From NCBI RefSeq assembly GCF_965641715.1, contig NZ_OZ282453.1: a stretch of 64,000 nt of DNA. The stretch is one strand, 5' to 3'. Position 1 is the first letter of the stretch, and every line of letters starts with the position of its first letter. This document shows positions 3,057-47,658 of the stretch, piece after piece. The translations under genes and the position numbers were made by a program. The notes beneath the pieces were generated by a model that saw only the letters and a program-made list of their open reading frames with translations, ran no database searches and had not been told where the DNA came from. Source of the stretch: Escherichia coli (GTDB lineage: Bacteria; Pseudomonadota; Gammaproteobacteria; Enterobacterales; Enterobacteriaceae).

Positions 3057-3076
3057 GTTACCAGGTGACCTGTCCT

Positions 3077-9565: not shown

Positions 9566-9595
9566 AAACCAGCTCATAAGCCGGGAGTACAACCT

Positions 9596-10435: not shown

Positions 10436-10437
10436 AG

Positions 10438-13332: not shown

Positions 13333-13342
13333 GAATAAGAAC

Positions 13343-19910: not shown

Positions 19911-20012
<102 letters not shown>

Positions 20013-20102
20013 AATGAATGCGAAACCGCGGTGTAAATAACGACAAAAACAAAATTGGCCGTTTCGGTCAGGGCCAACTATTGCCTGAAAAAGGGTAACG
20101 AT

Positions 20103-22922: not shown

Positions 22923-22923
22923 T

Positions 22924-24402: not shown

Positions 24403-24439
24403 GTTGTTGTTTTCGGTTCCGACAACGGTTGCCGGGTGC

Positions 24440-24711
<272 letters not shown>

Positions 24712-24773
24712 CAAAAAACGGCAACGAACACAACAAACACAGCCTCACCTGGCATCACATTTATGAGGAAAAA

Positions 24774-26054: not shown

Positions 26055-27271
26055 AGGTCGGCTTCTTTTTACTGAAATTTCCGTTGTCGTCGGAAACCTT
26101 CGTTCTTAACCAAATCACTGCGTTTATTGATATGGGATTTGAGGTGGAGATTATCGCGCTGCAAAAAGGCGACACACAAAACACCCACGCGGCATGGACG
26201 AAATACAACCTTGCTGCCAGAACCCGCTGGTTACAGGACGAACCTACGGGCAAAGTGGCGAAACTGCGCCACCGCGCCAGCCAGACCTTACGCGGCATTC
26301 ATCGTAAAAATACCTGGCAGGCGCTCAACCTCAAACGCTATGGTGCTGAGTCGCGGAACCTGATTTTGTCTGCCATTTGCGGTCAGATCGCAACACCATT
26401 TCATGCCGATGTCTTTATCGCTCATTTTGGCCCTGCGGGGGTAACCGCAGCAAAACTACGCGAACTGGGTGTCATTCGCGGCAAAATTGCCACTATCTTT
26501 CACGGTATTGATATCTCCAGTCGGGAAGTGCTCAACCACTACACTCCCGAATATCAACAACTGTTTCGCCGTGGCGACCTGATGTTACCGATAAGCGATT
26601 TGTGGGCCGGAAGGCTGCAAAAAATGGGCTGCCCGAGGGAAAAAATCGCCGTATCGCGCATGGGCGTGGACATGACGCGCTTTAGCCCGCGTCCGGTGAA
26701 AGCGCCCGCAACGCCGCTGGAAATCATCTCCGTCGCACGCTTAACCGAAAAAAAAGGCCTGCATGTGGCGATCGAAGCCTGCCGTCAGTTGAAAGAGCAG
26801 GGCATGGCATTTCGCTATCGCATCCTCGGCATTGGCCCGTGGGAACGACGCCTGCGTACCCTCATCGAACAATATCAACTGGAAGATGTGGTAGACATGC
26901 CGGGCTTTAAACCGAGCCACGAAGTGAAAGCGATGCTCGACGACGCGGATGTCTTCCTGTTGCCATCGGTAACGGGCGCGGATGGCGATATGGAAGGTAT
27001 TCCGGTGGCGCTAATGGAAGCGATGGCGGTCGGCATTCCGGTGGTTTCTACTCTGCATAGCGGAATACCGGAATTGGTGGAGGCCGATAAATCCGGCTGG
27101 CTGGTGCCTGAGAACGATGCTCGCGCACTGGCACAACGTCTGGCGGCGTTTAGCCAACTGGACACCGACGAACTGGCTCCGGTCGTCAAACGTGCGCGCG
27201 AAAAAGTCGAACACGATTTTAACCAGCAGGTGATCAATCGAGAACTCGCCAGCTTGCTGCAAGCTTTATAG
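26051..27271 (+). CDS. wcaL: Colanic acid glycosyltransferase (GT4)
   Basis: 406 aa; GT4 EX7E region (...[19 protein letters not shown]...); start overlaps the wcaK stop. Confidence 0.9.
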
Positions 27272-27281
27272 AGGAGAACGC

Positions 27282-28676
27282 ATGCCATTTAAAACACTCT
27301 CCCGACGCACCTTCCTGACGGCAAGCTCGGCGCTTGCCTTCCTCCATACCCCTTTCGCTCGCGCACTTCCCGCCCGACAAAGCGTTAACATTAACGACTA
27401 CAACCCTCACGACTGGATCGCCTCATTTAAACAAGCCTTCAGCGAAGGGCAAACGGTCGTCGTGCCTGCTGGATTCGTTTGTGACAATATCAACACCGGC
27501 ATCTTCATCCCTCCCGGCAAAACGTTACACATCCTTGGAAGCCTGCGCGGCAACGGCAGAGGGCGATTTGTCTTACAGGACGGCAGCCAGGTGACAGGGG
27601 AGGAGGGCGGCAGTATGCATAACATCACCCTGGATGTGCGAGGCTCTGACTGCACCATCAAAGGGCTGGCGATGAGCGGCTTTGGTCCGGTAACGCAGAT
27701 TTATATCGGCGGCAAAAACAAACGGGTCATGCGCAACCTGACCATCGATAATCTCACCGTTAACCACGCTAATTACGCTATTTTGCGCCAGGGATTTCAT
27801 AACCAGATTATCGGTGCCAACATCACCAACTGTAAATTTAGTGATTTACAGGGCGACGCCATTGAATGGAACGTGGCGATTAACGACCGTGATATTTTGA
27901 TATCTGACCATGTCATCGAGCGCATCAACTGTACCAACGGCAAAATCAACTGGGGCATCGGCATAGGTCTTGCGGGAAGCACTTATGATAATAATTACCC
28001 GGAAGACCAGGCAGTGAAAAACTTTGTCGTGGCGAATATCACGGGAACGGATTGTCGGCAGTTGATCCATGTTGAAAATGGTAAACATTTTGTTATTCGT
28101 AATATCAAAGCCCGCAATATCACGCCGGATTTCAGTAAGAAAGCAGGTATTGATAACGCGACGGTCGCTATTTACGGTTGTGACAATTTCGCAATTGATA
28201 ATATTGAAATGATTAATAGCGCCGGGATGTTAATCGGCTATGGGGTAATTAAAGGCAAATATCTCTCGATACCGCAAAATTTCCGAGTGAATAATATTCA
28301 ACTGGATAACACCCATCTTGCTTATAAATTGCGCGGCATCCAAATCTCCGCTGGGAATGCCGTCTCCTTTGTGGCGCTGACTAACATTGAGATGAAGCGT
28401 GCGTCGCTGGAGTTACACAACAAACCGCAACACCTTTTTATGCGTAATATCAAGGTGATGCAGGAATCCTCAGTTGGACCCGCATTGAGCATGAACTTCG
28501 ACATGCGCAAAGACGTTCGCGGCGTCTTTATGGCGAAAAAAGAAACACTGCTGTCTCTTGCAAATGTTCATGCGGTGAATGAAAAAGGGCAAAGCTCCGT
28601 CGATATCGACAGAGTTAATCACCATATTGTTAATGTGGAAAAGATTAACTTTAGATTGCCGGAACGGAGGGAGTAG
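27282..28676 (+). CDS. wcaM: Colanic acid biosynthesis protein WcaM (predicted periplasmic, Tat-type signal)
   Basis: 464 aa; N-terminus [28 protein letters not shown] carries a twin-arginine motif; last gene of the operon. Confidence 0.85.
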
Positions 28677-28850
28677 ATTTGCGACCATTCCTGGAAAAAT
28701 GGAGCCATACTTAGGAACAATGCTACTGCAATCCACAACGAAGCGGCGTAACATCACAAGTAATTCAGTAATCAATTCAGGGTAATTGATGCTGGCGAAA
28801 AAAATCGAACAAGCTATAATTCAGCAACCATTTTACAGGTGGATGAAATA

Positions 28851-29744
28851 ATGACGAATTTAAAAGCAGTTATTCCTGTAGCGGGTCTTGGGATGCATAT
28901 GTTGCCTGCCACTAAGGCGATTCCCAAAGAGATGCTACCGATCGTCGACAAGCCAATGATTCAGTACATTGTTGACGAGATTGTGGCTGCAGGGATCAAA
29001 GAAATCCTCCTGGTAACTCACGCGTCCAAGAACGCGGTCGAAAACCACTTCGACACCTCTTATGAGTTAGAGTCTCTCCTTGAACAGCGCGTGAAGCGTC
29101 AGCTGCTGGCGGAAGTGCAGTCCATCTGTCCACCGGGCGTGACCATTATGAACGTGCGTCAGGGCGAACCTTTAGGTTTAGGCCACTCCATTTTGTGTGC
29201 ACGACCCGCCATTGGTGACAATCCATTTGTCGTGGTGCTGCCAGACGTTGTGATCGACGACGCCAGCGCCGACCCGCTGCGTTACAACCTTGCTGCCATG
29301 ATTGCACGTTTCAATGAAACGGGCCGCAGTCAGGTGCTGGCAAAACGTATGCCGGGTGACCTCTCTGAATACTCGGTCATCCAGACCAAAGAACCGCTGG
29401 ATCGCGAAGGTAAAGTCAGCCGCATCGTCGAATTTATCGAAAAACCGGATCAGCCGCAGACGCTGGACTCAGACATCATGGCCGTTGGTCGCTATGTGCT
29501 TTCTGCCGATATTTGGCCGGAACTGGAACGTACTCAGCCTGGTGCATGGGGGCGTATTCAGCTGACTGATGCCATCGCTGAACTGGCGAAAAAACAGTCC
29601 GTTGATGCCATGCTGATGACAGGTGACAGCTACGACTGCGGTAAAAAAATGGGCTATATGCAAGCGTTCGTGAAGTATGGGCTACGCAACCTCAAAGAAG
29701 GGGCGAAGTTCCGTAAAGGGATTGAGAAGCTGTTAAGCGAATAA
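28851..29744 (+). CDS. galF: UTP-glucose-1-phosphate uridylyltransferase-like protein GalF
   Basis: 297 aa from [30 protein letters not shown]; conserved 5-prime flank of O-antigen clusters. Confidence 0.95.
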
Positions 29745-30115: not shown

Positions 30116-31201
30116 GTGAAGATACTTGTTACTGGTGGCGCAGGATTTATTGGTTCTGCTGTAGTTCGTCACATTATAAATAATACGCAGGATAGTGTTG
30201 TTAATGTCGATAAATTAACGTACGCCGGAAACCTGGAATCACTTGCTGATGTTTCTGATTCTGAACGCTATATTTTTGAACATGCGGATATTTGCGATGC
30301 TGCTGCAATGGCACGGATTTTTGCTCAGCATCAGCCGGATGCAGTGATGCACTTGGCTGCTGAAAGCCATGTTGACCGTTCAATTACAGGTCCTGCGGCA
30401 TTTATTGAAACCAATATTGTTGGTACTTATGTCCTTTTGGAAGCCGCTCGCAATTACTGGTCTGCTCTTGATAGCGACAAGAAAAATAGCTTCCGTTTTC
30501 ATCATATTTCTACTGACGAAGTATATGGTGATTTGCCTCATCCTGACGAGGTAAATAATACAGAAGAATTACCCTTATTTACTGAGACAACAGCTTACGC
30601 GCCAAGCAGCCCTTATTCCGCATCCAAAGCATCCAGCGATCATTTAGTCCGCGCGTGGAAACGTACCTATGGTTTACCGACCATTGTGACTAATTGCTCT
30701 AACAATTATGGTCCTTATCATTTCCCGGAAAAATTGATTCCATTGGTTATTCTCAATGCTCTGGAAGGTAAAGCATTACCTATTTATGGTAAAGGGGATC
30801 AAATTCGCGACTGGCTGTATGTTGAAGATCATGCGCGTGCGTTATATACCGTCGTAACCGAAGGTAAAGCGGGTGAAACTTATAACATTGGTGGACACAA
30901 CGAAAAGAAAAACATCGATGTAGTGCTCACTATTTGTGATTTGTTAGATGAGATTGTCCCGAAAGAGAAATCTTACCGCGAGCAAATTACTTATGTTGCC
31001 GATCGTCCGGGACACGATCGCCGTTATGCGATTGATGCTGAGAACATTGGTCGCGAATTGGGATGGAAACCACAGGAAACGTTTGAGAGCGGGATTCGTA
31101 AAACGGTGGAATGGTACCTGTCCAATACAAAATGGGTTGATAATGTGAAAAGTGGTGCCTATCAATCGTGGATTGAACAGAACTATGAGGGCCGCCAGTA
31201 A
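30116..31201 (+). CDS. rmlB: dTDP-glucose 4,6-dehydratase
   Basis: 361 aa; GTG start; Rossmann motif TGGAGFIGS; conserved RmlB sequence. Confidence 0.95.
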
Positions 31202-32100
31202 TGAATATCCTCCTTTTTGGCAAAACAGGGCAGGTAGGTTGGGAACTACAGCGTGCTCTGGCACCTCTGGGTAATTTGATTGCTCTTGATGTTCACTCCA
31301 CTGATTACTGTGGTGATTTTAGTAATCCTGAAGGTGTAGCTGAAACCGTAAGAAGCATTCGGCCTGATATTATTGTCAACGCAGCCGCTCACACCGCAGT
31401 AGACAAAGCAGAATCAGAACCGAAGTTTGCACAATTACTTAACGCGACGAGTGTCGAAGCGATCGCGAAAGCAGCCAATGAAGTCGGCGCTTGGGTTATT
31501 CACTACTCTACTGACTACGTATTTCCGGGGACCGGTGAAATACCATGGCTGGAGACGGATGCAACCGCACCACTAAATGTTTACGGTGAAACCAAGTTAG
31601 CCGGAGAAAAGGCGTTACAGGAATATTGCGCGAAGCATCTTATTTTCCGGACCAGCTGGGTCTATGCAGGAAAAGGAAATAACTTCGCCAAAACGATGCT
31701 ACGTCTGGCAAAAGAGCGTGAAGAATTAGCGGTTATTAACGATCAGTTTGGTGCGCCAACAGGTGCTGAACTGCTGGCTGATTGTACAGCACATGCCATT
31801 CGTGTCGCACTGAATAAACCGGATGTCGCAGGCTTGTACCATTTGGTAGCCAGTGGTACCACAACCTGGTACGATTATGCTGCGCTGGTTTTTGAAGAGG
31901 CGCGCAAAGCAGGCATTCCCCTTGCACTCAACAAGCTCAACGCAGTACCAACAACTGCCTATCCTACACCAGCTCGTCGTCCACATAACTCTCGCCTTAA
32001 TACAGAAAAATTTCAGCAGAACTTTGCGCTTGTCTTGCCTGACTGGCAGGTTGGCGTGAAACGAATGCTTAACGAATTATTTACGACTACAGCAATTTAA
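31201..32100 (+). CDS. rmlD: dTDP-4-dehydrorhamnose reductase
   Basis: 299 aa; [20 protein letters not shown]; start overlaps the rmlB stop. Confidence 0.95.
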   Translation: MNILLFGKTGQVGWELQRALAPLGNLIALDVHSTDYCGDFSNPEGVAETVRSIRPDIIVNAAAHTAVDKAESEPKFAQLLNATSVEAIAKAANEVGAWVIHYSTDYVFPGTGEIPWLETDATAPLNVYGETKLAGEKALQEYCAKHLIFRTSWVYAGKGNNFAKTMLRLAKEREELAVINDQFGAPTGAELLADCTAHAIRVALNKPDVAGLYHLVASGTTTWYDYAALVFEEARKAGIPLALNKLNAVPTTAYPTPARRPHNSRLNTEKFQQNFALVLPDWQVGVKRMLNELFTTTAI

Positions 32101-32157
32101 TAGTTTTTGCATCTTGTTCGTGATGGTGGAGTAAGATGAATTAAAAGGAATGATGAA

Positions 32158-33036
32158 ATGAAAACGCGTAAAGGTATTATTTTAGCGGGTGGTTCTGGTA
32201 CTCGTCTTTATCCTGTGACTATGGCTGTCAGTAAACAGCTGTTACCGATTTATGATAAACCGATGATCTATTACCCGCTTTCTACACTGATGTTAGCGGG
32301 TATTCGCGATATTTTGATTATCAGTACGCCACAGGATACTCCTCGTTTTCAACAACTGCTGGGTGACGGGAGCCAGTGGGGGCTAAATCTTCAGTACAAA
32401 GTGCAACCGAGTCCAGATGGTCTTGCGCAGGCATTTATCATCGGTGAAGAGTTTATTGGTGGTGATGATTGTGCTTTGGTTCTTGGTGATAATATCTTCT
32501 ACGGCCACGATCTGCCGAAGTTAATGGACGTAGCTGTTAACAAAGAAAGTGGTGCAACAGTATTTGCTTATCACGTTAATGATCCTGAACGTTATGGTGT
32601 CGTTGAGTTTGATAAAAACGGTACGGCAATTAGTCTGGAAGAAAAACCGTTACAACCAAAAAGTAATTATGCGGTAACCGGGCTTTATTTCTATGATAAC
32701 GACGTTGTCGAAATGGCGAAAAACCTTAAGCCTTCTGCCCGTGGTGAACTGGAAATTACCGATATTAACCGTATCTATATGGAGCAGGGGCGTTTATCCG
32801 TTGCCATGATGGGGCGTGGTTATGCATGGCTGGATACGGGGACACATCAGAGTCTTATTGAAGCAAGCAACTTCATTGCCACCATTGAAGAGCGCCAGGG
32901 ACTAAAGGTTTCCTGCCCAGAAGAAATTGCTTACCGTAAAGGGTTTATTGATGCAGAGCAGGTAAAAGCATTAGCTGAGCCGCTGAAAAAAAATGCTTAT
33001 GGCCAGTATCTGCTGAAAATGATTAAAGGTTATTAA
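32158..33036 (+). CDS. rmlA: Glucose-1-phosphate thymidylyltransferase
   Basis: 292 aa; [15 protein letters not shown] nucleotidyltransferase motif. Confidence 0.95.
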
Positions 33037-33040
33037 TAAA

Positions 33041-33592
33041 ATGAACGTAATTAAAACAAAAATTCCAGATGTACTGATTTTTGAACCGAAAGTTTTTAGT
33101 GATGAGCGTGGTTTCTTTTTCGAGAGCTTTAACCAGAAGATTTTTGAGGAAGCTGTAGGCCGCAAAGTTGAATTTGTTCAGGATAACCATTCGAAGTCTA
33201 GTAAAGGTGTTTTACGCGGGCTGCATTATCAGTTGGAACCTTATGCACAAGGAAAATTGGTGCGCTGCGTTGTCGGTGAAGTTTTTGACGTAGCTGTTGA
33301 TATTCGTAAATCGTCATCTACTTTTGGCAAATGGGTTGGGGTGAATTTATCTTCTGAGAATAAGCGGCAATTGTGGATTCCTGAGGGATTTGCACATGGT
33401 TTTTTAGTGCTGAGTGAAACGGCGGAGTTTGTTTATAAAACAACAAATTTTTATTCGTATCCACATGAGCGTAGTATTATATGGAGTGATTCTAATATAA
33501 ATATAAGTTGGCCGCTCCCAAATAGTATGATAAATCTTTCTAAAAAAGATAAGATGGCACCAAATTTAAACATGGAAAATAAAATAAGTTGA
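33041..33592 (+). CDS. rmlC: dTDP-4-dehydrorhamnose 3,5-epimerase
   Basis: 183 aa; cupin-type RmlC sequence (FFESFN...RGLHYQ...). Confidence 0.95.
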   Translation: MNVIKTKIPDVLIFEPKVFSDERGFFFESFNQKIFEEAVGRKVEFVQDNHSKSSKGVLRGLHYQLEPYAQGKLVRCVVGEVFDVAVDIRKSSSTFGKWVGVNLSSENKRQLWIPEGFAHGFLVLSETAEFVYKTTNFYSYPHERSIIWSDSNINISWPLPNSMINLSKKDKMAPNLNMENKIS

Positions 33593-34827
33593 AAAATTCA
33601 ATATTAACAAACATTTTTTCAATGTTCAGCATACAAGGTGTTAATTACATCATTCCTTTGGTGACAATTCCATATCTTGTTAGGGTTTTAGGGTTAGAGG
33701 TTTATGGTAAATATAGTATTATTTTGTCTGTGTTACAATATTTAGTGATAATTACTGATTATGGATTTAATTTGTCTGGAAGTAGGCAGATAGCATTAAG
33801 TCTAAATGATAAGAAAAAAATTTCAAAGATATTTTGTGCGATAATAATATGTAAGGTTATTATTGCTGCAATTTCATTCTTTTCTGTTTTCTTATTTATG
33901 GAATATAATGGTTCTTATAGCGCTTATGTTGAGTTATTTATAAGCGGAATGGGAATTGTTATAGGTACATCATTTTTCCCAGTATGGTTGTTTCAAGGGT
34001 ATGAACGCATGTATTGGATTGCTATCAGTAATTTATTTGCAAAAATTACCGGAGGCATCCTGATTTTTTTACTTGTCCACAATAACAGCGATCTTAATAT
34101 TGCTATTATTATTCAGAGTTGTACTTGTCTCATTTCTGCTGGGATTGCATTAACGACAGCAAGAATAGGGAAGTTTGTTTATTTTCTATGGCCTCCACTA
34201 TCCGAAATAAAAAAACAACTTAAACTGGGTTGGAATATTTTTTTATCGACATTTTTTAGTAGTATGTACACAACAAGCATACCATTGATACTTGGAGTTA
34301 ACGCCGGAGCGGAAGCAGTAGGCGTTTATAATTCCGCAGATAAACTCAAGCAAGCTCTGCAAGGAATAATAGGTCCTGTATCTCAAGCTATTTACCCGCG
34401 CTCAAGCCGTTTATTTTCGCACTCAATTAAGGATGGACTTTCCTTTGTAACAAAAGTCTCGATTTTCTTATGTTCATTTATGTTTCTATGCAGTGCAGTA
34501 GGTTTTTTTCTATCAGAATACATCGTTAATTTAGCCTTTGGTGCAGGACATGAGTCATCTGTTTCAGTATTAAAAATTATAATTTGGATACCATCAGTTG
34601 TTGCTGTTGCGAATATGTTAGGTGTTCAAATAATCTTACCTATGGGATTAACCAAAATCTTTGGCATGACTTATGTAGTTTTGGGAGGAATAGGATTAAT
34701 AATTATGTATGCCGCTTCATATTATGAGTCTTTCATTGGGGTGTCATATGCAGCGATATTAATAGAGATTATTATTACAGTAATCTTTTTGGCAGTTATT
34801 AAGAAGCGCATTAGAGGGAAAGAATGA
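33589..34827 (+). CDS. wzx: O-antigen flippase Wzx (PST family), serotype-specific
   Basis: About 400-aa AT-rich ORF encoding a polytopic membrane protein directly after rmlC. Start is ambiguous: TTG at 33589 (overlapping the rmlC stop) or ATG at 33622. Confidence 0.75.
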   Translation: MKNSILTNIFSMFSIQGVNYIIPLVTIPYLVRVLGLEVYGKYSIILSVLQYLVIITDYGFNLSGSRQIALSLNDKKKISKIFCAIIICKVIIAAISFFSVFLFMEYNGSYSAYVELFISGMGIVIGTSFFPVWLFQGYERMYWIAISNLFAKITGGILIFLLVHNNSDLNIAIIIQSCTCLISAGIALTTARIGKFVYFLWPPLSEIKKQLKLGWNIFLSTFFSSMYTTSIPLILGVNAGAEAVGVYNSADKLKQALQGIIGPVSQAIYPRSSRLFSHSIKDGLSFVTKVSIFLCSFMFLCSAVGFFLSEYIVNLAFGAGHESSVSVLKIIIWIPSVVAVANMLGVQIILPMGLTKIFGMTYVVLGGIGLIIMYAASYYESFIGVSYAAILIEIIITVIFLAVIKKRIRGKE

Positions 34828-35741
34828 TTTATATATCTGTATGTATACCGACAAAAAATAGGCTTGACTATTTGACAAAAACAGTTGAGTCTATTATCAA
34901 TGATAACGTTGATGTTCATGCATATGAAATAGTTATTGCAGATAATTCTGACGATGATTTAACAGAAAAGTATGCAAGAGAATTAATGGATAGTGGGTAT
35001 AATATCAAATATTATAAAAATCCACAAACTGGGTTTTACAACTCTATTCAAGCACTTCAGTTAGGTGATGGTGCATTTCTTAAGTTACATAATGATTACA
35101 CCAGCTTCAATAAAGGAGGTTTTAAAAAACTATTCGATCATGTAGTAAAAAATTATGACTCTCGAAATATGCTTTTCTTCACTAATGGAGCATTGGGGGC
35201 CGTATCGACAAAATATGAATGTACTTCATTTGATAAGTTTGTATTTAATGCAAGTTATTTGATTACTTGGAGTTCGTCATTTTCTATTTGGAAGGATGAC
35301 TTTATTGAATTGGAAACAAAACCTGATGATCTCAATGAGATGTTCCCTCACACCAGCCTTATTTTACAATCAAATAATAAAATATTCTCAATAGTAGATG
35401 AATCTATTTTTAAAAATATTAGTGTATCAAGAAAAGGGGGGTATAATATATTTTATAATTTTTGTGTGTTATTTTTGGATATGCTTGATATTGAAAAAAA
35501 GAAAGGCTTGTTGTCAGAAAAAACAATAAAAAAGGTAAAAAGAGATATGTATTATAAGTTTGTAATGGTTTGGTACTATCGGACAATTCAGAACAATAAA
35601 AGAAGATATACCTTTGATAACGAAAATGCGTATGAGAATATTAAAAAAGCATATGGATTTATAGGTTTTTCTGGTGTGTTTTTAGTAGCTAAAGCCAAAT
35701 ATTTCTTTGATAAAATATTTGGCTTTTTCGTTAAAAGTTAG
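34824..35741 (+). CDS. Glycosyltransferase family 2 (O-antigen)
   Basis: 305 aa; N-terminal GT2 signature ISVCIPTKNR...IVIADNSDDD; AT-rich; sugar specificity unknown. Confidence 0.75.
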   Translation: MIYISVCIPTKNRLDYLTKTVESIINDNVDVHAYEIVIADNSDDDLTEKYARELMDSGYNIKYYKNPQTGFYNSIQALQLGDGAFLKLHNDYTSFNKGGFKKLFDHVVKNYDSRNMLFFTNGALGAVSTKYECTSFDKFVFNASYLITWSSSFSIWKDDFIELETKPDDLNEMFPHTSLILQSNNKIFSIVDESIFKNISVSRKGGYNIFYNFCVLFLDMLDIEKKKGLLSEKTIKKVKRDMYYKFVMVWYYRTIQNNKRRYTFDNENAYENIKKAYGFIGFSGVFLVAKAKYFFDKIFGFFVKS

Positions 35742-35747
35742 TATGGA

Positions 35748-37064
35748 TTGAGCATGATTATGCAGTTAAGAACAAATATTTCTGGGAGGGTGGGGCTTTG
35801 GTTGATTTTATTTACCATTTTTGGGGGAGCTTATAAGACTGCATTTGGAACTATTAGTACATCATATATATCATTTGTCTGGGGTGGCTGGATTTTAATT
35901 ATATATATATATCATTCATATTATGTAAGACTTAATTTCTTATATAGGATTAGCAGAAGTTATTATCTATATGCATTTTTTATATCTGTGTTGTTAATAG
36001 TATCTCTTATACAATTCTCATTTTTCGGTATAGGTGATATGCTGAATATTGACTTACAACTAAAAAGAGTAATGCAGGCAATAGTATCATTTACATTTTT
36101 TGCTATAACTGCTGATTATATTATTAACAAATTGACTGTTAGGGATTTATTCTTAGGAATCATATATTTTCTGTTATTTATAACGTTGTTGTGTGTTATA
36201 CAATTATCAAATGATTCATTTAGAATATGGTATTTGAATCTTACTGCAATTGATGGATACTGGTATGAGTGGGCCCAGAAAAGTAATCGAGCGATTGGAT
36301 TAAAGGCTATGTCTATTTGGGATACATCAGTATCCTATTCATTCCTGTTATTTATAGCATTTGCTGCATACTTTCAATTAAAAAATAAAAATATTCTTCT
36401 ATATTTATTTGTAGCATTGGTTTTTCTATTGATTGTTATGAGTGGCAGGACTGGATTATTATTTTTTATTGTATTTTCCTGCCTTCTATCAATCAGGTAT
36501 AAAATTTATGGATTCATGTTTACATATGCAATAACTTCGGTTATCTGCATTTTTTTTATTATGCTTGTGAGTGAAAGTGAGACTGTTTTACGTGTAATAA
36601 ATTTTGCTTTTGAATTAATTATGAATATTATAAATGGGAAAATTGAAACAAACTCAACAGATGATCTTATTAATAATCACTTATTTATACCTCATTTAGA
36701 TAACATATTTTGGGGTGATAATATTTATATTGGTGATGGTGATGAAGTAATTTCAAAAATTGGCCGTTCATCTGACTCCGCATTTGTTATTAACTATGTT
36801 TCTAATGGAGTGATTGGTTTTTTCATAACATCTATTCTGGCCATCATTAATGGGAAAATGATATTTAGTTATTTTAATATTCACAATAAAAGTGTTTTTT
36901 ATTTTTTTGTTTTGCTTGTTTGTTTTTTTCTGTCATTTGGTTTGTATATAAAGGTATTGGTATATGTTAGTGCTACTTTGTTGAAAGCAATGATATTTAC
37001 AACTATATGTTTAAATCATATTTTTAAAAATAAAATAATAGTTCGGAAAACTTATGAGAAATGA
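35748..37064 (+). CDS. wzy: O-antigen polymerase Wzy (candidate)
   Basis: 438 aa, extremely hydrophobic with 10 or more predicted TM segments, rich in I/F/L/Y, no recognisable soluble domain; position between wzx and the transferases. Family call from membrane topology only. Confidence 0.65.
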   Translation: MSMIMQLRTNISGRVGLWLILFTIFGGAYKTAFGTISTSYISFVWGGWILIIYIYHSYYVRLNFLYRISRSYYLYAFFISVLLIVSLIQFSFFGIGDMLNIDLQLKRVMQAIVSFTFFAITADYIINKLTVRDLFLGIIYFLLFITLLCVIQLSNDSFRIWYLNLTAIDGYWYEWAQKSNRAIGLKAMSIWDTSVSYSFLLFIAFAAYFQLKNKNILLYLFVALVFLLIVMSGRTGLLFFIVFSCLLSIRYKIYGFMFTYAITSVICIFFIMLVSESETVLRVINFAFELIMNIINGKIETNSTDDLINNHLFIPHLDNIFWGDNIYIGDGDEVISKIGRSSDSAFVINYVSNGVIGFFITSILAIINGKMIFSYFNIHNKSVFYFFVLLVCFFLSFGLYIKVLVYVSATLLKAMIFTTICLNHIFKNKIIVRKTYEK

Positions 37065-37614
37065 GAAATTAATTATTTTAATTTTACGTGGTGGACCATC
37101 ATTCTATCGCAGACTCAGAAGTCGAATATATGCAATGATTTTCAATACTGAAAAGTTGACAATTGGTAGAAATGTTTCTCTGTCAGGCACGAACAATATT
37201 TACTTTGGACGTAACGTATTGGTTGGAAATCAATCATGGTTGGCGGCGATAAACTCGGGGAAAATAATTATTGGAGATAATGTATCATTAAGTCAAAATG
37301 TGCATATAGCTGCTAATCAATGCGTTAGAATAGGAAATGGTTGTTTGATAGGAAGCGATGTTTTAATAACAGATCACAATCATGGTTATGGCAGAGAACT
37401 AATATATGTTCCACCTAAAGAACGTAAGTTAATTATTAAAGGAAGCACTGAAATTGGTGAAAATTGTTGGTTGGGTGATAATGTGAAAATATTAAGTGGA
37501 GTTGTTTTAGGGAGCAATGTAGTTGTTGGTGCAAATTCTGTTGTAACACGGAGTTTTCCAGCTAACTGTATTATAGGTGGTATACCAGCAAAACTAATAA
37601 AAAAAATACAATGA
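37054..37614 (+). CDS. O-acetyltransferase, hexapeptide-repeat (maltose/galactoside acetyltransferase-like) family
   Basis: 186 aa; hexapeptide repeats and HNHGYG-like motif (IGDNVSLSQNVHIAANQ...ITDHNHGYG...IGENCWLGDNVKILSGVVLGSNVVVGANSVV); overlaps the wzy 3-prime end by 11 nt. Confidence 0.75.
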   Translation: MRNEKLIILILRGGPSFYRRLRSRIYAMIFNTEKLTIGRNVSLSGTNNIYFGRNVLVGNQSWLAAINSGKIIIGDNVSLSQNVHIAANQCVRIGNGCLIGSDVLITDHNHGYGRELIYVPPKERKLIIKGSTEIGENCWLGDNVKILSGVVLGSNVVVGANSVVTRSFPANCIIGGIPAKLIKKIQ

Positions 37615-37632
37615 TATAAGGGTAGTGTTTTT

Positions 37633-38562
37633 ATGACGGTAGATATTATTATAGCAACATATAATGGCGAAAAATACATAAGGGAACAAGTGGAGTCTAT
37701 ACTCAATCAAACATATAAGAATTTTCATTTATATATACGTGATGATGGTTCTACTGATAAGACAAAAGATATTATTTATGACTTGAAATGTTTAGACGAT
37801 AGAATTATTTTGATTGAAGATGATATTATTAATAATGGTGTTGGAGAAAACTTTAAAATACTATTAAAACATTGCTCCGCTGATTATGTTTTTATTGCGG
37901 ATCAGGATGATGTATGGGAAAAAAGTAAGATAGAAGAGCTGCTCTCTTTTGCTATAAAAAATTTACCTACAAACTCGCCAGGTATTGCATATGCCCCAGG
38001 ATATGTTGTTGATGAACATTTGTATTCATCAAAGTTAAAAATGACAAATACAGACAATAAAGTTAAAAGTCTTGGTGATATGATCTTAATGAATGGCGGA
38101 GTGCAAGGATGTGCAATGGTTATTAATCGATGTCTATATCAGATGGTTCTCCGTACCAATTTTTATTGGTATATGCATGATCAAGTATTAAGTCTTTATG
38201 CTATTTGTTTTGGTTATATATTGTTTTTACCTAAACCATTATTTAGATACCGGCAGCACTCTAATAATGTATTAGGATATAATTCAGGAGGGGTGAAGTT
38301 ATGGTTCAAAAAATATATCCGCTCCAGAAGGAATACTTTTTTAATTAACAAACATACAGATAAGTTGTTTTGTGATTTTTTTTCTAGTGAGTCGTTTAGA
38401 ATGAGAAAAAATCAACATGATTTTTTCTTTTCATATATGGGCTCCAGAAAAAATAAAGTTAAGTTTTTGTATTACATTATAACCAATAAAATATTTCTAC
38501 GTGGGAAGCTAACTAACGCTATTATTAAAACGTTGTTAGTTAAAGATATTGTTGAACGATGA
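37633..38562 (+). CDS. Glycosyltransferase family 2 (O-antigen)
   Basis: 309 aa; N-terminal IIIATYNGEKYI...YIRDDGSTD GT2 signature. Confidence 0.75.
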   Translation: MTVDIIIATYNGEKYIREQVESILNQTYKNFHLYIRDDGSTDKTKDIIYDLKCLDDRIILIEDDIINNGVGENFKILLKHCSADYVFIADQDDVWEKSKIEELLSFAIKNLPTNSPGIAYAPGYVVDEHLYSSKLKMTNTDNKVKSLGDMILMNGGVQGCAMVINRCLYQMVLRTNFYWYMHDQVLSLYAICFGYILFLPKPLFRYRQHSNNVLGYNSGGVKLWFKKYIRSRRNTFLINKHTDKLFCDFFSSESFRMRKNQHDFFFSYMGSRKNKVKFLYYIITNKIFLRGKLTNAIIKTLLVKDIVER

Positions 38563-38592
38563 GTTATTTATAATAAAATGGATGGTTGAATA

Positions 38593-39699
38593 ATGAATGT
38601 TGTTTTTTCGGCAAATACATCATGGTATTTATATAATTTTAGGCAAAATACCATAAGAAGGTGTATCAAAAAAGGGCACAGTGTTTATATCATTGCCCCT
38701 GAAGATGAATACACTGAAAAACTAGTAAGTCTTGGTGTTAAGAAATATAATCTATTTTTAAATGGAAGTTCACTAAATCCATTTGTTGATATTGTTAGTG
38801 TATTCCATTTGTTTTTACTTTATTTTTTTATTAAACCTGATGTTGTCTGTAATTTTACCCCGAAGTTAAATGTTTATAGCTCTCTCGTCTCATTTTTTTA
38901 TCCAAAGATTAAAGTCATAAATAACATATCGGGTTTAGGTTCTGCTTTTGTATCGAATAATATAAAGAAAAGTATGCTTCATATATTATACAAAATAACA
39001 CAGAGAAGAGCTGATATTATTTTTTTTCAAAATAATGATGATTTGTCTTATTTTTTAGAACATCGACTGGTTCAGGAAATAAAAACAAGATGCGTTATAG
39101 GTTCGGGAGTTGATATTAACAAATTTAAAGTAACAAAAATAGACAGAGAAAAATGTATAAAGTTTATACTTGTTGCTCGTCTGATTGAGCATAAAGGAAT
39201 TCGATTGTATGTTGAGGCTGCCAGACTTATAAAAAGTAAATATCCCTTTACACATTTTGCATTGCTGGGGCCTAGCATTGATTCACATCCATCATCAATT
39301 AATTTAGATGAGGTTCATAGATGGACTGAGTTGGGGTATATTGATTATCTTGGTCATTCAGATGATGTTGCAAATGTTATTGCTGATTTCGATTGTGTTG
39401 TACTACCTTCCTATTATCGTGAAGGTGTTCCCAAATCATTACTTGAGGCAGCTGCATCGGGTAAAATAATAATTACTACAAACACAGTAGGTTGTAGAGA
39501 CTCTGTCATTGAAAATGTTACTGGGTTTCTTTGTGAACCTCGCTCGTTAGAAAGCTTAATCGGAGCCTTGGAAAGAGTATTACAACTTAATGAGAATGAG
39601 TTTATTAATATGAAAATATCAGCAAGACATCTGGCTGAAGAAAAGTTTGATGAGAATATCAACATAAAAAAATATATTGATTCTATTGAAAACAAGTAG
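38593..39699 (+). CDS. Glycosyltransferase family 4 (O-antigen)
   Basis: 368 aa; C-terminal GT4 region REGVPKSLLEAAASGKIIITTNTVGCRDSV. Confidence 0.75.
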   Translation: MNVVFSANTSWYLYNFRQNTIRRCIKKGHSVYIIAPEDEYTEKLVSLGVKKYNLFLNGSSLNPFVDIVSVFHLFLLYFFIKPDVVCNFTPKLNVYSSLVSFFYPKIKVINNISGLGSAFVSNNIKKSMLHILYKITQRRADIIFFQNNDDLSYFLEHRLVQEIKTRCVIGSGVDINKFKVTKIDREKCIKFILVARLIEHKGIRLYVEAARLIKSKYPFTHFALLGPSIDSHPSSINLDEVHRWTELGYIDYLGHSDDVANVIADFDCVVLPSYYREGVPKSLLEAAASGKIIITTNTVGCRDSVIENVTGFLCEPRSLESLIGALERVLQLNENEFINMKISARHLAEEKFDENINIKKYIDSIENK

Positions 39700-39724
39700 T
39701 ATTTAATTCGATATAGGTTTATAC

Positions 39725-40783
39725 ATGAAGATATTTCTTTGCTCTCTCTATTATGAGTCAAAAAGAGTTACAGGTGCAAATAAACGGTTTGATTATTTTG
39801 GGAAATATCTTGCTAGAAATGAAGAAGTTTCGTTGACGGTTATTGTTCGTGATGGGGAGATACCGTCATGGGCAACTGATGCTATTGTTTTACCAAAATA
39901 TCAGTACTTGCCACCTTTATTTCGCAGAATTCTATATTGGTTGCATTTGTCAAAAATATTTTTTAAATGTGACAATATAATAATTAGTGATTTTATGCCG
40001 ATTCCGTTTATTCCTTTTAAAGGTAATGATAATTATTACCAGTTAGTTCATGACATCCGCAATTTTACCGATTACAATAGAGCTTTTTTTAAAAAAATGG
40101 CAAGTGTATTTCAAGGATATCAATGGCGCAAAACACAAAATATTCTCACAGTGAGTAATTTTACTAAATGGCAATTGATTAGATATTGTAATGTTAATGA
40201 GAATAAAATAAAAGTATCCTATAATGGAATTGAGCTTATTGAAAGGAACAAACTTGTAAGAGATATTGATTTTTTATATATAGCTACATTTGAAAAAAGA
40301 AAAAATCATGATAATTTAATAAAGGCTTTTTATTATTATGTTAATGAAATAAACACCAATGCGAAATTATATCTAATTGGTAGGGATTTAGGATATAAAA
40401 AGAGTATTTTAGAGCTTGTATCGTCGCTTCAGTTATCACAATCAGTGATTTTTATTGATTCTGTTAGCGAAAATGAGTTGAGTAGAATTTATGAAAGAAC
40501 TCATTGCTTTATCAGTCCTTCTCTCTATGAAGGATTTGGTATGCCGATTATTGAAGCGATGTACCATGGTTGTAATGTGGCTTGTAGTAACATTGATGTT
40601 TTCCGTGAAATAGCTCAGAATCATGCTTCGTACTTTGAACCGGATAATATTCATAGTATTATAGATGCAATGTGCCTTGCACGAGAGTATGAAAATAACA
40701 ATCCCGAAACTCTTCATTATGTAAATGTTAATTTTTCTTGGGATTCTATAACTGCTAAATTTTTAGAGGACGTTAGATATTAA
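39725..40783 (+). CDS. Glycosyltransferase family 4 (O-antigen; possibly a mannosyltransferase)
   Basis: 352 aa; GT4 EX7E region EGFGMPIIEAMYHGCNVACSNIDVFREI; lies immediately upstream of manC-manB. Confidence 0.7.
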   Translation: MKIFLCSLYYESKRVTGANKRFDYFGKYLARNEEVSLTVIVRDGEIPSWATDAIVLPKYQYLPPLFRRILYWLHLSKIFFKCDNIIISDFMPIPFIPFKGNDNYYQLVHDIRNFTDYNRAFFKKMASVFQGYQWRKTQNILTVSNFTKWQLIRYCNVNENKIKVSYNGIELIERNKLVRDIDFLYIATFEKRKNHDNLIKAFYYYVNEINTNAKLYLIGRDLGYKKSILELVSSLQLSQSVIFIDSVSENELSRIYERTHCFISPSLYEGFGMPIIEAMYHGCNVACSNIDVFREIAQNHASYFEPDNIHSIIDAMCLAREYENNNPETLHYVNVNFSWDSITAKFLEDVRY

Positions 40784-40784
40784 C

Positions 40785-42185
40785 ATGATTCAACCTGTAA
40801 TTATTGCTGGGGGCGTTGGTTCTAGATTATGGCCGCTTTCTAGGGAACAGTACCCAAAACAATTTCTTACATTATTAAATGATAAGAGTTTACTTCAAAA
40901 TACATTATTACGACTCAAAGATCTGCATCATTTACCTCCCATAATCGTATGCAACCATGAGCATAGATTTTTAGTCGCTGAACAATTAAGGATGGAATCT
41001 ATTAATGTTGGTGGAATTATTTTAGAACCTAAAGGAAAAAATACAGCTCCAGCTGTTGCCCTTTCAGCCTTTTTTGTAAATAGATGTGAGATAAACTTAG
41101 AGAAGGATCCTGTCTTATTAGTGTTAGCTGCGGATCATGTTATTGATGATACGGATGGATTTTTAGCTGCAATAAATAGTGCTTTACCTCTTGCGCAGAA
41201 CGGTATGTTAGTGACTTTTGGTGTTGTTCCTACTCATCCTGAAACAGGATATGGATATATCCAGACTGGCAAGAAAATAATAGATAATTCATTTGAAATT
41301 ATTGATTTTAAAGAAAAGCCATCATTAGAAAAAGCGCAGGAATATTTAGATAGTAAAAACTATTTATGGAATAGTGGTATGTTTATGTTTCGTGCGTCTA
41401 CTTATTTAAATGAGTTGAAAAAATTCAGATCTGATATTTATGATGCTTGCTTTGATGCCATGAATTCCTCAAGTTTTGATTTTGATTTTGTTCATGTAAA
41501 TAAAGAAAATTTTTCATTGTGCTTATCTGAATCAATCGATTATGCTGTCATGGAGCAAACAGATAAAGGTGTTGTTGTCCCCATTGATATAGGATGGAGT
41601 GACATTGGTTCGTGGTCAGCTCTTTGGGATGTTTGTAGTAAAGATACTAATAATAATGTTATTAAAGGGGATGTCATAGATCATGATTCTCATAATTGTT
41701 TTATCATCGCTGAGACATCCTTAGTTACTACTATTGGTCTTAATAATCTTATTATTATTCAAAGCAATGATTCACTACTTATTGCTGACCGTCATTCTTC
41801 CCAAATGGTGAAGAATATAGTTGACGAACTCAAGGAAAAAGAACGTCATGAATATTATTTCCATTCGGAGGGATATCGGCCTTGGGGAAAATATAAAACA
41901 ATTGATACCGGGGAAAACTATCAAGTAAAACGAATTACTGTGAGGCCTGGAGGGAAACTATCAATGCAAATACATTATCATCGTGCTGAACATTGGGTTA
42001 TTGTCTCTGGTACAGCAAGAGTTATAGTTGATGGCAATACCAAATTGCTTAGAGAGAATGAATCTATATACATTCCTCAGGGATGTATTCATAGTTTAGA
42101 AAATCCAGGAGAAACTCCTCTCGATATAATAGAGGTTCGCTCAGGTGTTTATCTTGAAGACGATGATGTTGTGCGCTTTCAATAG
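40785..42185 (+). CDS. manC: Mannose-1-phosphate guanylyltransferase (O-antigen copy)
   Basis: 466 aa; same domain order as cpsB ([14 protein letters not shown]...cupin) but AT-rich and divergent at DNA level. Confidence 0.9.
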
Positions 42186-42232
42186 TAGCTCTATTTTTTT
42201 TACAACAAACGTTTTGTTATAAAAATTATCAT

Positions 42233-43603
42233 ATGAAACAATTAACCTGCTTTAAAGCCTATGATATTCGCGGGAAATTAGGCGAAGAACTGAATGAAGA
42301 TATCGCCTGGCGTATTGGGCGCGCCTATGGCGAATTTCTCAAACCGAAAACCATTGTGTTAGGCGGTGATGTCCGCCTTACCAGCGAAACCTTAAAACTG
42401 GCGCTGGCGAAAGGTTTACAGGATGCGGGAGTCGACGTGCTGGATATTGGTATGTCCGGCACTGAAGAGATCTATTTCGCCACGTTCCATCTCGGCGTGG
42501 ATGGCGGCATTGAAGTTACCGCCAGCCATAATCCGATGGATTATAACGGCATGAAGCTGGTGCGCGAGGGGGCTCGCCCGATCAGCGGTGATACCGGACT
42601 GCGCGACGTCCAGCGTCTGGCAGAAGCCAACGACTTTCCTCCCGTCGATGAAACCAAACGCGGTCGCTATCAGCAAATCAATCTGCGTGACGCTTACGTT
42701 GATCACCTGTTCGGTTATATCAATGTCAAAAACCTCACGCCGCTCAAGCTGGTGATCAACTCCGGGAACGGCGCAGCGGGTCCGGTGGTGGACGCCATCG
42801 AAGCCCGCTTTAAAGCCCTCGGCGCACCTGTGGAATTAATCAAAGTACACAACATGCCGGATGGCAATTTCCCCAACGGTATTCCTAACCCGCTACTGCC
42901 GGAATGTCGCGACGATACTCGTAATGCGGTCATCAAACACGGCGCGGATATGGGCATTGCCTTTGATGGCGATTTTGACCGCTGCTTCCTGTTTGACGAA
43001 AAAGGGCAGTTTATTGAGGGCTACTACATTGTCGGCCTGTTGGCAGAAGCATTCCTCGAAAAAAATTCCGGCGCGAAGATCATCCACGATCCACGTCTCT
43101 CCTGGAACACCGTTGATGTGGTGACTGCCGCAGGCGGCACCCCGGTAATGTCGAAAACCGGACACGCCTTTATTAAAGAACGTATGCGCAAGGAAGACGC
43201 CATCTACGGTGGCGAAATGAGCGCCCACCATTACTTCCGTGATTTCGCTTACTGCGACAGCGGCATGATCCCGTGGCTGCTGGTCGCCGAACTGGTGTGC
43301 CTGAAAGGGAAAACGCTGGGCGAACTGGTACGCGACCGGATGGCAGCATTTCCGGCAAGCGGTGAGATCAACAGCAAACTGGCGGACCCCGTTGAGGCGA
43401 TTAACCGCGTGGAACAGCATTTTAGCCGTGAGGCTCTGGCGGTGGATCGCACCGATGGCATCAGCATGACCTTTGCCGACTGGCGCTTTAACCTGCGCAC
43501 CTCCAACACCGAACCGGTGGTGCGCCTGAATGTGGAATCGCGCGGTGATGTGCCGCTGATGGAAGAAAAAACAAAACTTATTCTTGAGTTACTGAGTAAG
43601 TAA
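42233..43603 (+). CDS. manB: Phosphomannomutase (O-antigen copy; mosaic with cpsG)
   Basis: 456 aa; codons 3 to about 444 are near-identical in DNA to cpsG (20109-21434), while the first two codons and the last 13 codons ([14 protein letters not shown]) are AT-rich and different. Confidence 0.95.
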
Positions 43604-43766
43604 TTCAGTAATTTCATATAAATGGGTTTTAAAAAACGGAAAAGATGAGATATCCGGTGTGGTATAGCCAAGGTAATGCTATTCAGTATCTCTATGAGTG
43701 AGTTAACATCTATACCACATTTAAGCCGCACACTTGGCGGTGACCACCCCCTGACAGGAGTAAACA

Positions 43767-45173
43767 ATGTCAAAGCAACAGATCGGCGTCGTCGGTATGG
43801 CAGTGATGGGGCGCAACCTTGCGCTCAACATCGAAAGCCGTGGTTATACCGTCTCTATTTTCAACCGTTCCCGTGAAAAGACGGAAGAAGTGATTGCCGA
43901 AAATCCAGGCAAGAAACTGGTTCCTTACTATACGGTGAAAGAGTTTGTTGAATCTCTGGAAACGCCTCGTCGCATCCTGTTAATGGTGAAAGCAGGTGCA
44001 GGCACGGATGCTGCTATTGATTCCCTCAAACCATATCTCGATAAAGGCGACATCATCATTGATGGTGGTAACACCTTCTTCCAGGACACCATTCGTCGTA
44101 ACCGTGAGCTTTCTGCTGAAGGCTTTAACTTCATTGGTACCGGTGTCTCCGGTGGAGAAGAAGGCGCGCTGAAAGGTCCTTCCATTATGCCTGGTGGGCA
44201 GAAAGAAGCCTATGAACTGGTTGCGCCGATCCTGACCAAAATCGCCGCAGTGGCTGAAGACGGTGAGCCATGCGTTACCTATATTGGTGCCGATGGTGCA
44301 GGTCACTATGTGAAGATGGTTCACAACGGTATCGAATACGGTGATATGCAACTGATTGCTGAAGCCTATTCTCTGCTTAAAGGTGGCCTGAACCTCACCA
44401 ACGAAGAACTGGCGCAGACCTTTACCGAATGGAATAACGGTGAACTGAGCAGCTACCTGATCGACATCACCAAAGATATCTTCACCAAAAAAGATGAAGA
44501 CGGTAACTACCTGGTTGATGTGATTCTGGATGAAGCAGCAAACAAAGGTACGGGTAAATGGACCAGCCAGAGTGCGCTGGATCTCGGTGAACCACTGTCG
44601 CTTATTACCGAGTCTGTGTTTGCACGTTATATCTCTTCTCTAAAAGATCAGCGCGTTGCCGCATCTAAAGTTCTCTCTGGTCCGCAAGCGCAGCCAGCTG
44701 GCGACAAGGCTGAGTTCATCGAAAAAGTTCGTCGTGCGCTGTATCTGGGCAAAATCGTTTCTTACGCCCAAGGCTTCTCTCAGCTGCGTGCTGCGTCTGA
44801 AGAGTACAACTGGGATCTGAACTACGGCGAAATCGCGAAGATTTTCCGTGCTGGCTGCATCATCCGTGCGCAGTTCCTGCAGAAAATCACTGATGCATAT
44901 GCCGAAAATCCGCAGATCGCTAACCTGCTGCTGGCTCCGTACTTTAAACAAATTGCCGATGATTACCAGCAGGCGCTGCGTGATGTCGTTGCTTATGCAG
45001 TACAGAACGGTATCCCGGTTCCGACCTTCGCCGCTGCGGTTGCCTATTATGACAGCTACCGCGCCGCTGTTCTGCCTGCGAACCTGATCCAGGCACAGCG
45101 TGACTATTTCGGTGCGCATACTTATAAGCGCATTGATAAGGAAGGTGTGTTCCATACTGAATGGCTGGATTAA
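43767..45173 (+). CDS. gnd: 6-phosphogluconate dehydrogenase, decarboxylating
   Basis: 468 aa; [21 protein letters not shown]; highly conserved Gnd. Confidence 0.95.
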
Positions 45174-46588: not shown

Positions 46589-46608
46589 TTATTTTGTTTC
46601 ATACTAAG

Positions 46609-46638
46609 AAAAGGCCCTAATAAATTAGGGCCTTTTCT
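46609..46638. terminator. Bidirectional rho-independent terminator between convergent ugd and gla
   Basis: aaaaggccctaataaattagggcctttt: perfect stem flanked by an A-run and a T-run. Confidence 0.7.
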
Positions 46639-46653
46639 TATGGTTTTATAAAA

Positions 46654-47658
46654 TCAAACTTTATAGAAGTTACGATACCATTCTACAAAGTTCTTTACCC
46701 CCTCTTTAACTGACGTTTCAGGTTTGAATCCTATTACGTCATACAGTGCTTTTGTATCAGCACTGGTTTCCAGTACATCACCGGGTTGGAGAGGCATCAT
46801 ATTTTTGTTGGCTTCAATACCCAGAGCCTCTTCTAAGGCATTGATATAGTCCATCAACTCCACAGGCGAACTATTACCAATGTTATAGACACGATATGGT
46901 GCTGAACTTGTTGCAGGAGAGCCTGTTTCAACAGCCCACTGTGGATCTTTTTCTGGAATAACATCCTGTAAGCGAATAATAGCTTCGGCAATATCATCAA
47001 TATAAGTAAAGTCACGCTTCATTTTGCCGAAGTTGTAAACATCAATGCTTTTACCTCCCAACATGGCTTTAGTGAATTTAAATAATGCCATATCCGGACG
47101 TCCCCATGGACCATAAACCGTAAAGAAACGCAGCCCTGTGGTCGGTAAGCCATACAAATGAGAATACGTATGGGCCATGAGTTCATTCGCTTTTTTAGTT
47201 GCTGCATAAAGCGAAACAGGATGATCTACAGAGTCATCTGTGGAGAAAGGCATCTTGCGGTTCATGCCATAAACAGAACTGGAGGAAGCGTAAAGTAGAT
47301 GCTGAACACTATTATGGCGACATCCTTCCAGTATGTTCAGGAATCCAATCAGGTTTGCATCTGCATATGCATTGGGATTTTCAAGGGAGTAACGTACACC
47401 GGCTTGCGCAGCGAGGTTTATTACGCGTTCGAACTGCTCGTCTGCAAACAGTGCCGCCATTTTCTCACGATCAGCCAGGTCAATTTTATAAAAACTGAAG
47501 TTGTCGTGCTTGAGTAAATCAAGTCGTGCTTGTTTGAGGTTGACATCGTAATAATCATTTAAGTTGTCAATGCCTACAACCTGATGACCAGCTGCAAGAA
47601 GCCGTTTACTTACATAGAAACCGATAAAGCCAGCAGCTCCCGTAACCAGAAATTTCAT
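46654..47658 (-). CDS. gla: UDP-glucuronate 4-epimerase (NAD-dependent SDR; Gla/WbnF/CapI-like)
   Basis: 334 aa; MKFLVTGAAGFIGFYVSKRLL...YASSSSVYG...YAATKK; closely resembles UDP-GlcA 4-epimerases from memory; minus strand, opposite to flanking ugd and wzz. Confidence 0.8.
   Translation of the reverse strand: MKFLVTGAAGFIGFYVSKRLLAAGHQVVGIDNLNDYYDVNLKQARLDLLKHDNFSFYKIDLADREKMAALFADEQFERVINLAAQAGVRYSLENPNAYADANLIGFLNILEGCRHNSVQHLLYASSSSVYGMNRKMPFSTDDSVDHPVSLYAATKKANELMAHTYSHLYGLPTTGLRFFTVYGPWGRPDMALFKFTKAMLGGKSIDVYNFGKMKRDFTYIDDIAEAIIRLQDVIPEKDPQWAVETGSPATSSAPYRVYNIGNSSPVELMDYINALEEALGIEANKNMMPLQPGDVLETSADTKALYDVIGFKPETSVKEGVKNFVEWYRNFYKV

Follow-up and report, generated by a model that had tools for sequence, protein, structure and literature searches.

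We found that the manB gene of the O-antigen cluster in a 64,000-nucleotide stretch of Escherichia coli DNA (contig NZ_OZ282453.1; 'the window' below means this whole stretch) is very probably a mosaic, with a body converted to the sequence type of cpsG, the phosphomannomutase gene of the colanic acid cluster, and a native 3′ tail, and that manB and cpsG thereby form direct repeats that are a substrate for deletion. We put the probability of this explanation, taken as a whole, at about 0.9. In it, the body of an ancestral low-GC manB would have been replaced with cpsG sequence by homologous recombination (gene conversion); the part from the start codon to codon 444 would be of cpsG type, and the last 12 codons, together with the spacer to gnd, would be native low-GC DNA of the O-antigen cluster. 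The conversion tract probably extended, on either side, as far as the last blocks in which pairing between the two genes was still possible. A single RecA-type crossover between the two copies would then excise 22,130 bp carrying wcaJ, wzxC, wcaK, wcaL, wcaM, galF, rmlBDAC, wzx, wzy, the glycosyltransferase genes and manC, and would leave behind an in-frame cpsG/manB hybrid adjoining gnd; the strain is then expected to be rough and to lack colanic acid. The mosaic and the repeat pair as such are already known, being routine, widespread and published in E. coli O-antigen clusters that use GDP-mannose. What we add is a nucleotide-level description for a rare O-unit with a mosaic class common to REL606, at least three replacement classes that appear to share the same homology limit, and a small census of natural deletion derivatives.

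The window contains, in this order, the wza–wcaM colanic acid cluster, galF, the O-antigen cluster (rmlBDAC, wzx, wzy, an acetyltransferase gene, four glycosyltransferase genes, manC and manB), gnd, ugd, wzzB and the his operon; all genes from cpsB to gnd, as well as both repeat copies, lie on the plus strand. cpsB, the manC of the colanic acid cluster (18474-19910; NCBIfam NF012004, 1115.6 bits, above the cutoff), is the left unique flank of the first repeat and would be kept after a deletion. It is followed by cpsG (20103-21473; NF011943, 1054.9 bits). Inside the deletable interval lie wcaJ, wzxC, wcaK, wcaL, wcaM and galF (21528-29744; NCBIfam equivalogs above the cutoff, annotated alike in strains 40EC and YSP8-1), rmlB, rmlD, rmlA and rmlC for dTDP-rhamnose (30116-33592; RefSeq annotation of near-identical genomes), the low-GC O-unit (33589-40783; NCBIfam) with wzx, a glycosyltransferase gene, a putative wzy (35754-37064), the acetyltransferase gene and three more glycosyltransferase genes, and manC (40785-42185; TIGR01479, 702 bits), which is of low GC (0.30-0.37) and unlike cpsB. 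manB (42233-43603; NF011943, 1044.3 bits) is located between galF (28851-29744) and gnd (43767-45173; NF006765, 774 bits), and the RefSeq genomes are alike in this. The RefSeq label of this manB is cpsG, which is an annotation matter. The spacer between manB and gnd (43604-43766) is the right unique flank of the second repeat; allele comparison showed it to be conserved, together with the manB tail, across serogroups, and the tail plus spacer is present in 273 complete E. coli genomes.

The O-unit of the window (33500-42232) is rare. It was found in 6 of 5,426 complete E. coli genomes, with 99.6-100% identity; the isolates are porcine or human and come from Canada, China, Singapore and the UK, except for the human isolate DETEC-S565, which has no country listed. 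The RefSeq annotation gives no serogroup name for its wzx and wzy, and an exact-sequence look-up placed both in 90%-identity clusters that include an O-antigen transporter and a Wzy deposited from Shigella dysenteriae. In strain ES5 (locus L009, NZ_CP133871.1, 4070-12605) the annotation of this O-unit contains many frameshifts and internal stops as well as truncated genes (manC, wzx, wzy, acetyltransferase), for which sequencing or assembly errors are a more likely cause than real decay.

When the window was compared with itself by blastn, positions 20101-21435 (cpsG) and 42231-43565 (manB) aligned without gaps over 1,335 bp, with 56 mismatches (95.8% identity, E=0). This is the sole long internal match of the window; the two copies are on the same strand, that is, direct, and are offset by 22,130 bp. 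The sequence-only reading had estimated roughly 95% identity by eye and direct repeats 22 kb apart that bracket wcaJ through manC, and both estimates hold. Column-by-column comparison of the two genes in register gave sharp edges. Upstream, identity stays at chance level until 2 bp before the ATG; within the repeat there are 26-30 matches per 30 nt, up to ...CCGCTGATGGAAG, 38 nt before the stop codon; past this point manB and cpsG drop out of identity, and further downstream they are unrelated again, so that the flanks of manB are foreign to cpsG, as had been proposed. The earlier claim that the first two codons of manB are also unrelated to cpsG was wrong: ATG AAA is the same in both genes, and codon 3 is one base off (CAA versus AAA). 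Since the 5′ difference amounts to this single base, the window manB has no demonstrably foreign 5′ coding segment. The divergent AT-rich 3′ end is real, with a GC content of 0.24, but comprises 12 codons (445-456) rather than the 13 first counted. Runs of more than 100 identical bases, which had also been pointed out, do exist (the longest is 106 nt), but they are no longer than 56 randomly placed mismatches give (null mean 105, P=0.42). The longest run thus fits random placement of mismatches and indicates no sub-mosaic in the manB core, and we rejected a patchwork of sub-tracts.

The body of manB has the composition of cpsG and not that of its neighbours. Its core (42231-43565) has a GC content of 0.548 and a GC3 of 0.626, equal to cpsG, with windowed values of 0.50-0.57, in a cluster where the O-unit genes upstream (33.5-42.2 kb) have a GC content of 0.25-0.38; cpsG-like GC covers 97% of the gene. 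The differences between the two cores are mostly silent: 48 of the 56 are at third codon positions, and there are only 6 amino-acid changes. Both genes are intact 456-codon ORFs that score above 1,040 bits on NF011943 (cutoff 801 bits), and the manB product is accordingly a predicted phosphomannomutase. The remaining tail of manB, codons 445-456 plus the stop (43566-43603), shares only 17 of 35 nt with cpsG and has a GC content of 0.24 versus 0.55, and yet it still aligns with the C-terminus of CpsG in frame and without gaps, with Arg-to-Lys changes of the kind typical of AT-rich DNA. manB therefore combines a position between galF and gnd, a host-GC body that is at least about 95% cpsG-like, and an in-frame residual low-GC end. 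The adjacent mannose genes were left out of this process, as the sequence-only reading had it: CpsB and the O-unit ManC are only 57% identical in amino acids, and no nucleotide match between cpsB and manC appeared in the self-blast of the window.

We analysed how manB and cpsG alleles are related in the species. A megablast survey of the 5,426 complete E. coli genomes with the manB query gave 5,703 cpsG-like places in 4,670 genomes, which means that about 1,000 genomes have two copies. The other 756 genomes had no megablast match to the manB/cpsG query and apparently lack a cpsG of the colanic acid type, for which other capsule types or larger deletions may be the cause. Both copies were then taken from genomes with the window O-unit and from O6 (E. 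coli Nissle, EcN), O43, O68, O125 and O7 (REL606). A neighbour-joining tree built from the 1,321-nt cores mixes the alleles of the two genes, and the manB core falls inside the diversity of E. coli cpsG. The 6 manB and 8 cpsG alleles compared have 67 polymorphisms in common and no fixed difference between the loci; the mean pairwise differences are 41 between manB alleles, 47 between cpsG alleles and 45 between the loci. Together with the cpsG-like GC and GC3 (0.55 and 0.63), the lack of fixed differences supports the earlier proposal of gene conversion between the colanic acid and O-antigen phosphomannomutase genes; at the population level, it shows that manB and cpsG alleles kept exchanging within a species-wide pool.

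The DNA for this exchange need not have come from the same chromosome. Strain 40EC (locus L007, 26507-27877) has the same O-unit as the window, and its manB differs from the window manB at 26 sites, 24 of which are within gene positions 438-975. manB divergence is thus 1.9%, against 0.2% in the other 8.7 kb of the O-unit (99.8% identical). In this tract neither the 40EC nor the window version matches its own resident cpsG, and several of the alleles are lineage-unique, which points to a putative import of about 540 bp of manB from an unsampled allele. Since the tract is unmatched by resident cpsG, import from other strains probably contributes. It is also possible that the mixing of manB and cpsG came mainly from DNA of other strains, by transduction or conjugation at the O-antigen/gnd hotspot, and not from exchange within one chromosome, and the finding of Iguchi et al. 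2011 (PMC3158064) that flanking segments are reshuffled independently of phylogroup would agree with that; we nevertheless regard this as the minority view. The mixing of two loci would still require ectopic recombination at some point. Moreover, the two copies of EcN (O6; locus L012, NZ_CP172017.1, a Nissle derivative, 12295-13665 and 31963-33333) differ at just 3 of 1,321 core sites, far below any other pair examined, which indicates that conversion took place recently in the Nissle lineage and, along with the deletions described below, proves that cpsG and manB do pair within one chromosome.

Comparison of the junctions between serogroups argues for replacement of manB in place. All manB genes of O6, O43, O68, O125 and O7/REL606 have the same 3′ junction as the window, a near-identical AT-rich tail and the same manB–gnd spacer. 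The 5′ junctions, all within the first ~15 nt of manB, are serogroup-specific: ATGAAACAA in the window O-unit, ATGAAAAAA in O43 and O125, ATGTCGAGT in O6 and GTGAATGAT in O68; in REL606 the start is displaced by two codons. In the window serogroup, O43 and O125 the cpsG-like tract begins at the start codon. This start, and the cpsG-like GC of nearly all of the gene, would be expected if a copy of cpsG had been inserted as a unit when the O-antigen cluster was assembled, with no conversion of a manB at all. However, a gene captured whole would carry the ends of cpsG itself, whereas 3-5 foreign codons are kept at the 5′ end of manB in O6, O68 and REL606, and different native tails are found in O157 and O75. 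Because the AT-rich tail of manB, aligning in frame and gapless with CpsG, is still a recognizable phosphomannomutase C-terminus, we favour replacement in place, and consider capture of a whole gene very improbable.

The manB classes of O157 and O75 have different AT-rich tails, and their junction is at about position 1319 versus 1333 in the window. These differences in tails and junctions indicate that the body of a low-GC manB was replaced several times. Each replacement stops just after the last conserved block, and its 5′ end is just before the first one; based on three tail classes, we infer that at least three independent classes of manB replacement share one homology limit. The replacement seen in the window is not specific to one strain but old: it took place long ago in a class of O-antigen clusters where manB abuts gnd, and this class now extends over many serogroups.

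For the window strain itself, a conversion in the recent past with the resident cpsG as the donor is scarcely credible, although EcN provides a precedent for such an event. Of 1,321 core sites, 55 separate the two genes of the window, a number like that of unrelated manB–cpsG pairs (mean 45, range 3-62) and equal to that of the REL606 pair. The mismatches are evenly spread, with no long converted patch (the run-length test above), and a distance matrix rejects the resident cpsG as recent donor, because the window manB is 35-61 differences away from non-resident cpsG alleles and 55 from the resident one. At 55 core differences, no recent manB/cpsG exchange is visible in the window strain, and the alleles give no detectable sign that its resident cpsG was the donor. 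Another alternative is that purifying selection kept two paralogous enzymes alike and that no recombination took place; in its favour, both phosphomannomutase genes are intact, and their cores differ by only 6 amino acids. It is refuted by the ~96% identity of synonymous sites, by the step in composition (GC3 of 0.63 amid a cluster of 0.25-0.38 GC), by the abrupt end of identity at both gene ends and by the low identity of CpsB and ManC.

The two genes have what is needed for deletion by homologous recombination: same-strand copies of ~1.3 kb with ~96% identity, and products of single crossovers in related genomes. The window pair has 17 uninterrupted runs of identity that are 25 nt or longer and add up to 880 nt; 7 of them reach at least 50 nt. 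RecA-dependent recombination in E. coli needs a segment of roughly 25 nt as a minimum, a length that the runs of the window comfortably exceed. Any crossover in this pair gives an in-frame cpsG/manB hybrid. No deletion derivative of the window O-unit was found, all 6 complete genomes with this O-unit keeping both copies.

We looked for the predicted deletion in the 5,426 complete genomes, using as a query the end of cpsB, the gene and the start of gnd. The deletion exists in at least 8 of them, in four or more O-antigen backgrounds, with assembly collapse being possible for each individual genome; 7 of these genomes were inspected, and CEC13002 is counted by search match only. In HG994851, TUM14697, LR536431 and FDAARGOS_1249 the order is wcaI-cpsB-(one cpsG-like gene)-gnd; everything from wcaJ to manC is missing, and the single gene has a cpsG-type upstream flank and a manB-type tail and spacer. 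SCU-176 and JNEC-KY173 have the deletion in an O75 background and keep the O75 wzx, which there lies downstream of manB. The set is completed by the O157:H7 genome 7.1_Anguil, which was inspected, and by CEC13002, which matches the search profile. The statement of the sequence-only reading that recombination could delete the 22-kb interval is thus confirmed in at least 8 related genomes, as well as by published deletions in REL606; for the window strain, the deletion is inferred from these cases.

The clearest product is that of the bovine strain 7.1_Anguil (locus L015, NZ_CP076232.1, 6202-7572), in which the wcaJ–manC interval is absent, including the O157 wzy, wzx and rfbE. In comparison with its sister strain Rafaela_II, the hybrid gene has 37 informative sites of the cpsG type followed by 25 of the manB type. 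There is one switch, at gene positions 876-1123, in the longest stretch of identity, and there are no private differences; the flanks have 0 mismatches in 2 kb on each side, and the deletion is 21,433 bp long. The single switch, the absence of private differences and the clean flanks are what a single homologous crossover between the direct repeats gives, and we explain 7.1_Anguil in this way. It may be a real variant, a laboratory derivative or a collapse of the repeats in assembly; the papers on the strain that were searched do not mention the loss of wcaJ–manC. In LR536431 (locus L004, NZ_LR536431.1) we noted an internal stop in wcaE (442-1188) and an IS3 element splitting ugd (10391-12818), so that this deletion genome has also suffered other losses among its surface-polysaccharide genes.

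The same deletion has been observed experimentally in E. coli B REL606. For the lines of the long-term evolution experiment, the study of Raeside et al. 2014, mBio (PMC4173774) reported manB and cpsG to be 96% identical, and found 7 rearrangements via manB x cpsG recombination. In 10 of 12 populations the stretch between the two genes was gone, and with it 12 O-antigen and 6 colanic-acid genes, and the same study lists a 23,293-bp 'RRE-manB-cpsG' deletion (region Delta4). The start-to-start spacing of the two genes in REL606 is exactly 23,293 bp, the published deletion size, and the core identity is 95.8%. REL606 is like the window in its gene order, cpsB-cpsG-wcaJ...galF-rmlBDAC-O-unit-manC-manB-gnd in the same orientation, and the two agree in core identity (95.8%), in an identical 3′ junction and in a near-identical tail and spacer. 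They differ in the spacing (23,293 versus 22,130 bp), in the O-unit (O7, disrupted by IS1, in REL606, and a rare unnamed one in the window) and in the 5′ junction, which in REL606 is a few codons inside manB and in the window is at the start codon. That a deletion known from the laboratory also appears in natural genomes is a modest addition.

O157 provides a second known case. Iguchi et al. 2011 (PMC3158064) cite Samuel et al. 2004 for the finding that the colanic-acid equivalent took the place of the original manB in O157, and they consider the variation of manB within O157 attributable to gene conversion with cpsG. As in the window, the O157 manB is more than 95% identical to cpsG and varies more than any other gene of its O-antigen cluster, the rest of which is conserved. 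However, it has another AT-rich tail, its junction is ~14 nt further upstream, and the sequence after it consists of an ISAs1 remnant and perB, where the window manB has gnd. These differences in tail, junction and downstream genes indicate that the O157 manB is the result of an independent replacement event.

A colanic-acid-like manC was seen in O75 only, among the E. coli examined. Colanic-acid-like or mosaic manB and manC genes (rfbK and rfbM) were reportedly described in Salmonella enterica O-antigen clusters by Stevenson and colleagues in 1991 and by Jensen and Reeves in 2001, the situation of Salmonella rfbK and cpsG being analogous. The likeness to the window would be that the mannose genes of the O-antigen cluster are wholly or partly replaced by colanic-acid copies, reportedly seen as high-GC segments in low-GC clusters. 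In several Salmonella groups manC is said to be colanic-acid-like too, which the window manC is not.

A further, tentative reading, which we consider rather unlikely, is that the repeat pair is a recurrent natural one-step route to rough, colanic-acid-negative variants. Deletion derivatives are known in several unrelated backgrounds, the deposited O157:H7 genome of 7.1_Anguil among them, and the homology limit common to the independent manB replacements suggests that repeated conversion acts as a ratchet that regenerates the substrate. Rough variants would in that reading possibly be selected by phage, by the immune system or through a growth cost. The 22,130-bp deletion is relevant to phage or serum sensitivity, to serotyping failures and to O-genotyping from assemblies, where collapse of the repeats and real deletion have to be told apart.

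Outside the repeat pair, the window carries an extra gene for a 334-aa NAD-dependent epimerase (46654-47658, minus strand) between ugd and wzzB. This spacer is gene-free in 7 of 9 other genomes whose region covered both genes. The epimerase had no NCBIfam match at E<=1e-60 and is annotated in 1504D004 as 'NAD-dependent epimerase' only; as a guess, it may have a role in the O-antigen pathway, where it could be, for instance, a UDP-glucuronate 4-epimerase. A perfect 17-nt hairpin at 46605-46640, between ugd and the epimerase gene, resembles a shared terminator.

REP-type repeats are present in the spacer between wzxC and wcaK as three tandem 96-nt REP/BIME-type units (24446-24733). The listed ORFs that overlie this array, 24404-24766 (plus strand) and 24388-24714 (minus strand), are probably not genes. 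Related copies, recognized by their self-blast matches to the array, are at 3072-3113, 9526-9566 and 19912-20021, the last of these in the cpsB–cpsG spacer. Iguchi et al. 2011 (PMC3158064) reported variable REP copies in exactly these two spacers, wzxC–wcaK and cpsB–cpsG, and the cpsB–cpsG spacer is shorter in YSP8-1 and FDAARGOS_1249.
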